Positions 44,940 to 45,346 of a stretch of DNA of 64,000 nt are shown one piece after another; position 1 is the stretch's first letter, and the number at the start of each line of letters is the position of its first letter. Below the pieces are notes generated by a model. The model was not told the DNA's origin. It did no database searches and saw only the letters and a list, made by a program, of their open reading frames with translations. The position numbers and the translations under genes are program-made. Source of the stretch: Eledone cirrhosa (Eukaryota); the NCBI GenBank assembly GCA_964016885.1, contig OZ024743.1, positions 19,716,001-19,780,000 of the forward strand, written 5' to 3'.

Positions 44940-45346
44940 AAAAATTAGAATTGGAGCTCTGAAATAGCAATATATATATGGATGTATATATAATGTATTT
45001 TGCAATACACTTTATATATACATCCATATATATATTGCTATTTCAGAGTTCCAATTCTAATTTTTAATTTCTGCCTGACCAACAACCGGTCTGCATAATC
45101 AGCTCCTGATTATTTACTAGATGTCTATAAGAATATAACATCATTGATCTCAGTAGACAGGTGGGGTAGTTGGCCTTGATAAGCTTCAACAAAAGCGAAA
45201 CATGTTTGTCGGCTTATCTCCCCTGTTTGCTGAGATCAAAGTGAGGGAATTTGTCACTACTTTAAAACAATAGCTTACGGTCTTCAAAATGCTTTTAATT
45301 AAGCATAAAGTGTATTGCAAAATACATTATATATACATCCATATAT
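44940..45346 (+). mobile_element. 315-nt circularly permuted non-coding unit with an HHR, plus an inverted junction-spanning fragment
   Basis: tatatacatccatatata recurs 315 bp apart (catcc at 45021 and 45336). The reverse complement of 44940-45012 equals the unit end joined to the unit start. Confidence 0.8.
45144..45239 (+). ncRNA. Type I hammerhead, U3-A8 variant, with a long interrupted stem I
   Basis: ttgatctcagtagacagg..gcc-TTGATAA-gctt caacaa aagc-GAAAC atgttt GTC-ggc..cctgtttgctgagatcaa. Confidence 0.75.

Follow-up and report, generated by a model that had tools for sequence, protein, structure and literature searches.

How does a hammerhead-bearing repeat unit come to lie beside an inverted piece of itself that runs across its own end-to-start junction? 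The question is raised by a locus in a 64,000-nt stretch of Eledone cirrhosa DNA (the window; Table 1), for which a preliminary description had proposed a circular or multimeric RNA as the template of reverse transcription. The junction-crossing piece is borne out by alignment: on the minus strand, 44940-45013 can be aligned to two copies of 45014-45328 placed head to tail, with 1 mismatch in 74 nt (dimer positions 294-367), whereas only 54 nt align when the linear unit is the reference. The reported period of 315 nt holds as well, with a motif present at 45017 and again at 45332. The sequence tatatacatccatatata, which had been taken as the start and end of the unit, does recur, but it does not mark the unit boundary; it is one of two fixed insertion ends, and the biological monomer would have its predicted start at 45211. 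The locus is a single insertion of a multi-copy, non-coding 316-nt type I hammerhead repeat with a U3-A8 core, i.e. a non-LTR retrozyme. We consider it likely, with a probability of about 75%, that a single circular RNA monomer was the template round which this repeat was reverse-transcribed, and that a Penelope-like RT/GIY-YIG protein inserted it into (TA)n by working on both strands of the target.

Table 1. Features of the locus and of related elements in the window.
Positions	Strand	Feature	Basis
44863..44932	.	Left (TA)n target run	sequence
44930..45013	-	Inverted 'tail' arm: unit 293-316, then 1 to ~52-55, across the end-to-start junction	alignment (44940-45013)
44990..45015	.	Inversion junction inside an imperfect hairpin of unit 293-316; join with 2 nt microhomology
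45014..45350	+	Forward 'short-end' arm: one complete unit, 45014-45328 (315 nt), followed by unit 1-22 into (TA)n
45036..45093	+	Tail and adjoining segment, unit 23-80; best conserved part among families A, B and C	alignment, end positions
45144..45239	+	Type I hammerhead, predicted cut 45210/45211	core, stems, fold
45342..45598	.	Right (TA)n/(TG)n target run	sequence
45599..45680	-	Neighbour outside the element: an autonomous PLE's short 3' end (P0003 family), same TA run
55203-55487	-	PLE 3' end (pLTR, canonical hammerhead at 55286), very young family
~55490-55630	+	Old decayed copy of the retrozyme superfamily, tail end; 74-80% to nearest matches

The window copy is 1 nt short in loop III (315 nt against a family unit of 316) and differs from the majority sequence of the family at 7 positions. 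As first described it sits in (TA)n, which is found on both sides, and the T-run is longer at the outer end of the inverted arm. The ends of the element are direct TA junctions without LTRs, and the loci consist of unit repeats alone between TA runs. The sole frame of at least 120 aa that touches the unit starts at 45299 and continues through the TA repeat.

The locus is neither single-copy nor part of a longer linear element, and many dispersed copies made of the unit only were found. A first look at the 3.0-Gb genome returned 985 candidates, with full-length matches 94-98% identical among the 38 scored; exact matches numbered 540 for a 32-nt core word and 365 for one tail-to-TA junction. We parsed 93 distinct loci, taken from the scored matches, the first 100 of the 540 core places and the first 30 of the 365 junctions, which amount to roughly a tenth or less of all copies. 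Repeat fetches, one segmental duplicate and a large array were left out; the duplicate (L056) and its counterpart L054 are one insertion that was duplicated together with its flanks, 470 kb apart, and was counted once. The 316-nt tandem period recurs in many dispersed copies, each unit is non-coding and carries one type I hammerhead, GC is low and LTRs are absent, in likeness to the metazoan non-LTR retrozymes reported as 170-400-nt non-coding tandem units with a type I hammerhead, low GC and no LTR, PBS or PPT (PMC7229834, PMC7761336). Tandem arrays and varied circular permutations had both been named as marks of the proposed template; the arrays were found, but free permutation was not, the outer ends being fixed at two sites while the inner ends vary.

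Two relatives of this family (A) have the same two ends. Family B, represented by the unit of L206, is 320 nt long and 83% identical to A (267/321), with 2215 candidates. Family C, represented by the unit of L244, is 310 nt long and 61-65% identical, with 9 candidates, copies that are 98-100% identical to one another and a minimal stem III. Older decayed copies of the superfamily are also present in the genome, and a search of a phage collection gave no match. In one of four runs of unknown kind (X1) many variants were found. Two further runs, also of unknown kind (X4 and X5), each gave one low-depth contig spanning the full unit, one of them returning 315 nt; since tandem DNA would give the same picture, these contigs are no evidence for a circle.

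The previously noted hammerhead with its interrupted stem I was confirmed by the core TTGATAA (45176-45182), GAAA (45197-45200), GUC (45208-45210) and a long interrupted stem I of ~26 bp, with GCTT/AAGC forming stem II and a short stem III. In families A and B the core displays U3-A8 in place of C3-G8, whereas family C has C3-G8; U3-A8 hammerheads have been reported at the ends of Penelope-like elements (PLEs; PMC4209133). The fold has a z of -6.8, and equally stable shuffles numbered 0 of 200. No match was returned when the window was searched in Rfam at gathering thresholds, the HH9 match (25.6 bits, E 9e-4) falling below the gathering score of 52, and the active core is not formed in the lowest-energy folds of the window copy and the family unit. 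In a covariation test on nine sequences of A/B type, pairing is kept in 97.9% of cells, and double changes occur in 9 of 34 pairs, in all three stems; the score was reached by 0 of 500 shuffles and slid structures pair at 41-50%, values that come from hand-picked rows and a shuffle control that ignores relatedness. In Xenopus, just one of nine predicted retrozymes has been reported to cleave in vitro (bioRxiv 10.64898/2026.07.22.740005). Matches to miRNAs at 44950-45055 were rejected, the signal being the inverted repeat. A further type I hammerhead with U3-A8, of unrelated sequence, adjoins a TA run at L235:181-225.

The inverted arm is not peculiar to this locus. In 74 of the 93 loci a minus arm is followed by a plus arm with the 3' ends outward (tail-out) in (TA)n, and the other 19 carry a single arm. 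The outer ends fall at two sites, unit 46-57 (tail) and unit ~22 (short), the latter position being blurred by a TA run within the unit. Both ends are intact in 69 two-arm loci: 68 of these combine a short with a tail end, one is short/short and none is tail/tail; five others have a damaged end. The same build was found in 50 of the 51 loci that had not been selected via an end (p 2e-14), and, by our own count, in 16 of 17 loci of family B, where the remaining one is tail/tail. The inner ends are scattered along the unit and the joins mostly have 1-8 nt overlap. Arms are longer than one unit in 110 of 168 cases and longer than two in 31; arm lengths show no correlation (rho 0.16, p 0.21), so that two enzymes in lock-step are not supported.

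This build is that of PLE insertions, for which published accounts give a 5' copy in inverted orientation, a tail of 30-40 bp at one end and TA as the target (PMC8557442, PMC3846280). The 316-nt family has an inverted 5'-truncated arm with the tail at one end only throughout the 68 short/tail loci, and an AT-rich, microsatellite target, TA adjoining 80 of 82 tail ends. The inverted piece in the window had been read as a footprint of its template; the circular or multimeric template is upheld by our results, but the inversion itself is the family rule and a PLE insertion signature. In a control on three autonomous PLE families of the same genome, the short/tail build was present in 10 of 10 loci with both ends called, from 13 examined that were mostly hand-picked as inverted pairs. 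With endonuclease-bearing PLEs the family shares the two start sites and the use of both strands in addition to this anatomy (PMC8557442, PMC3846280, PMC11167929). It differs from them in that there is no ORF, the whole element is the 316-nt unit, its own ribozyme site is crossed and up to seven rounds are copied; the RT and GIY-YIG ORF of autonomous PLEs is absent from the 316-nt loci.

The nature of the template can be addressed through variants within and between loci. Subfamily alleles are near all-or-none per locus (e.g. 21 fixed and 0 mixed, or 19 fixed and 1 mixed), and the arms of one locus are concordant at 154 of 163 derived alleles, as against 13% for shuffled arms (maximum 28%). 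Moreover, 12 of 111 multi-carrier variants are restricted to one locus where 0.57 were expected (maximum 4 in 200 shuffles), and fixation over 3-7 copies, spanning rounds, was seen for nine rare variants. In L014 all 5 copies, on either arm, have 257G, and in L090 all 7 have 256G. In family C each of 7 loci has one haplotype through all units, two loci having a common haplotype. Private variants numbered 145, of which 133 are singletons, 6 fixed and 6 partial; those that are fixed are few since most are singletons, which stem from later mutation or RT error, and the within-locus deviation is 0.75%. Source loci of the fixed private variants were not found among the 93 sampled loci. New alleles fixed across all units of an insertion argue that each insertion passes through a bottleneck of one monomer, as it would if one circle were copied repeatedly. 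Consequently, the claim of reverse transcription from a circular or multimeric, retrozyme-like RNA is supported, and the data favor a single monomer (a circle) over a multimer.

The same PLE-driven insertion could also have used an uncleaved linear multimer from an earlier tandem locus, with no circle involved. Such a template would suit the purified anole PLE, which does not need cleavage and has unprocessed RNA as its main template in vitro (PMC11167929); tandem loci and a 53-kb array do exist in the genome, and a homogeneous young source locus would likewise yield homogeneous daughters. We nevertheless regard a multimer as unlikely. Fixation of new alleles in all units of an insertion calls for a one-monomer bottleneck, no oriented inversion junction common to two loci was found, and the 93 loci contain no double inversions and no carried-over flanks. 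Nor did any cross-locus pair of copies share two rare substitutions that are mixed in both loci; four pairs share only deletions or alignment gaps. The array itself was rejected as the source of the dispersed copies, since a 12-nt deletion present in about one third of its units (46 of 140 anchor spacings are 304 nt) occurs in 0 of 296 dispersed junction copies. This array (G000:C2:207686300-207740000; L091-L094 and L127-L129) is a satellite grown from one insertion, with a 316/304-nt higher-order structure; the tail end is kept on its left and the short end on its right, and some of its units contain a 183-bp insert of another repeat.

One haplotype per locus would be accounted for equally well by a cleaved linear monomer, provided that the reverse transcriptase jumps from the template's 5' end back to its own 3' end. 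End-to-end jumps of reverse transcriptases usually add extra bases. The predicted cut site is read through by 36 of 45 arms at tail-anchored loci. Its junction bases are, however, intact in 225/228 and 228/228 copies with zero indels, no base being gained or lost. Arm ends are mildly enriched near the cut site (12, with 6.4 expected; ~2-fold hazard, 5 events), which is in line with such jumps, but the long hairpin of stem I could account for this equally well, and we find a jumping enzyme on a linear monomer distinctly improbable.

A different origin of the second arm, rather than of the template, is offered by the published model for PLE inversions, in which it is a fold-back (self-primed) copy of the first and the tail is later trimmed from one side (PMC3846280). 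Junction microhomology of 1-8 nt is common in our loci, and several junctions, that of the window included, lie in hairpins, as self-priming would have it. Against this, 25 of 67 loci have arms of which neither contains the other (trimming could rescue these), and the positions of the inner ends along the unit are independent, 16 of 67 lying within 30 nt where 12.9 were expected. Among non-fixed rare variants, 1 is shared between arms in register, 151 are unshared and 4 are shared out of register, a comparison that is weak if most variants postdate insertion. Extension of both strands has moreover been demonstrated in vitro (PMC11167929), and we judge self-priming very unlikely. Spread at the DNA level, by recombination or a DNA transposase acting on a minisatellite or fold-back element in which the ribozyme is incidental, has a negligible probability and is largely refuted for the dispersed copies: their 3' ends are fixed and asymmetric, 5' truncation is random, TA is targeted, PLEs have an identical build and all three hammerhead stems show compensatory changes. 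It stands only for the growth of the one locus that reached ~53 kb with 316/304 periodicity.

The short/tail build, the single haplotype, the seamless junction and the exclusion of the array together point to one monomer that was reverse-transcribed in rolling-circle fashion, with priming from both strands of the target. A biochemical counterpart is available in the purified anole PLE, which cleaves and extends both strands and has two start sites bounding the tail (PMC11167929). A sequence of events can be proposed on this basis. Tandem loci would be transcribed, the hammerhead would cleave at GUC and the monomers would then be ligated to circles. A PLE protein, predicted to be a dimer, would bind the conserved unit 256-316/1-80, and both (TA)n strands would be nicked. 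Priming would take place from one 3' end at unit ~13-22 and from the other some 30 nt on, at 46-57; the two cDNAs would run round the circle in one direction, over 50 to 2000 nt, and their ends would join through microhomology. In keeping with its conservation, unit 23-80 is likely the recognition and start region for the reverse transcriptase. In its most specific form, which we hold at only slightly better than even odds, each insertion would be a fossil of rolling-circle target-primed reverse transcription, in which the halves of a Penelope dimer prime opposite strands at two obligatorily different sites on one circular ribozyme RNA, for up to seven rounds.

Which PLE would have supplied the enzyme? 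Fragments of three abundant families, which we take to be PLEs partly from their motifs, lie in the window at 3442-4509 (-), 8443-9183 (+), 36447-37487 (+) and from 45599 onward (-). These families yielded 35,000-80,000 candidates at first look and contain, elsewhere in the genome, open frames of 781 and 1238 aa. Each has two 3' ends with a spacing of ~60-110 nt, which exceeds the 30-40-nt tail on record. Pfam gave no recognition of the fragments, one longer frame having a sub-threshold GIY-YIG match, and weak 14-3-3 matches in a PDB sequence search were taken as chance. The PLE identity of control loci and fragments is thus a probable one, drawn from the motifs mentioned, from neighbours in the Atlas that carry GIY-YIG, HTH_animal and RVT_1, and from a match of 36% between two families. 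The unit did not match the three families by blastn. A fourth PLE family is weakly collinear with it (score 60; shuffles mean 36, maximum 54), the collinear stretch ending in a shared tail-end motif.

The preliminary description had also called the 316-nt repeat a second family, unrelated to a first. If the first is the hammerhead at 55286, this does not hold: that hammerhead belongs to the 3' end of a young autonomous PLE and was rejected as a retrozyme, and the DNA adjoining it is a relative of the 316-nt family. The young PLE family has copies that are 99-100% identical, 1647 candidates and a ~100-nt tail, and the decayed relative is interrupted or abutted by it. The tail end of this PLE resembles that of the retrozyme, a weak lead that might hint at the partner clade.

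The class of element is already known, and the 316-nt family is a non-LTR retrozyme with unusually clear mechanistic evidence. Compared with the metazoan non-LTR retrozymes as reported, the insertion anatomy is resolved here (two tail-out arms, two fixed starts, (TA)n and one haplotype), the core is U3-A8 with the long stem I, and the family is known from DNA alone. It also has a conserved non-ribozyme segment, a feature whose lack was noted in a 2020 review, according to which no conserved motif pointed to the helper (PMC7761336). Plant LTR retrozymes, with a type III hammerhead in the LTRs and a 4-bp target duplication, differ in topology and in having LTRs. A close parallel is provided by the vertebrate non-LTR retrozymes that Li, Clavereau and Pollet (2026; bioRxiv 10.64898/2026.07.22.740005) treat as PLE derivatives, non-autonomous partners of PLEs which have a similar unit size and rare very long arrays. 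In that preprint the PLE link comes from co-occurrence and pLTR homology and the tandems partly from local amplification, whereas here the link is the integration footprint, the tandems are made at insertion and no parent pLTR was found among the sampled PLE families. Neither the inverted short/tail build nor per-locus haplotypes were found for retrozymes in the literature covered, most subscription papers lying outside it.

The return of animal retrozyme circles to DNA, and the enzyme behind it, have so far been a matter of hypothesis, Cervera and de la Pena having offered as such the conversion of circles to tandem cDNA by PLEs (2020; PMC7229834). The 316-nt family bears the PLE integration signature itself and keeps the record of a one-monomer template. 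It adds to the in vitro work on PLEs a strict rule, namely that every insertion uses both start sites, one per side, and it provides a tiny natural substrate for direct tests of the asymmetry of the PLE dimer and of whether circular RNA undergoes rolling-circle retrotransposition. If the fossil reading is true, these insertions would be the first genomic record of animal retrozyme integration, and the conserved tail region would make the 316-nt unit a minimal substrate for PLE enzymes.
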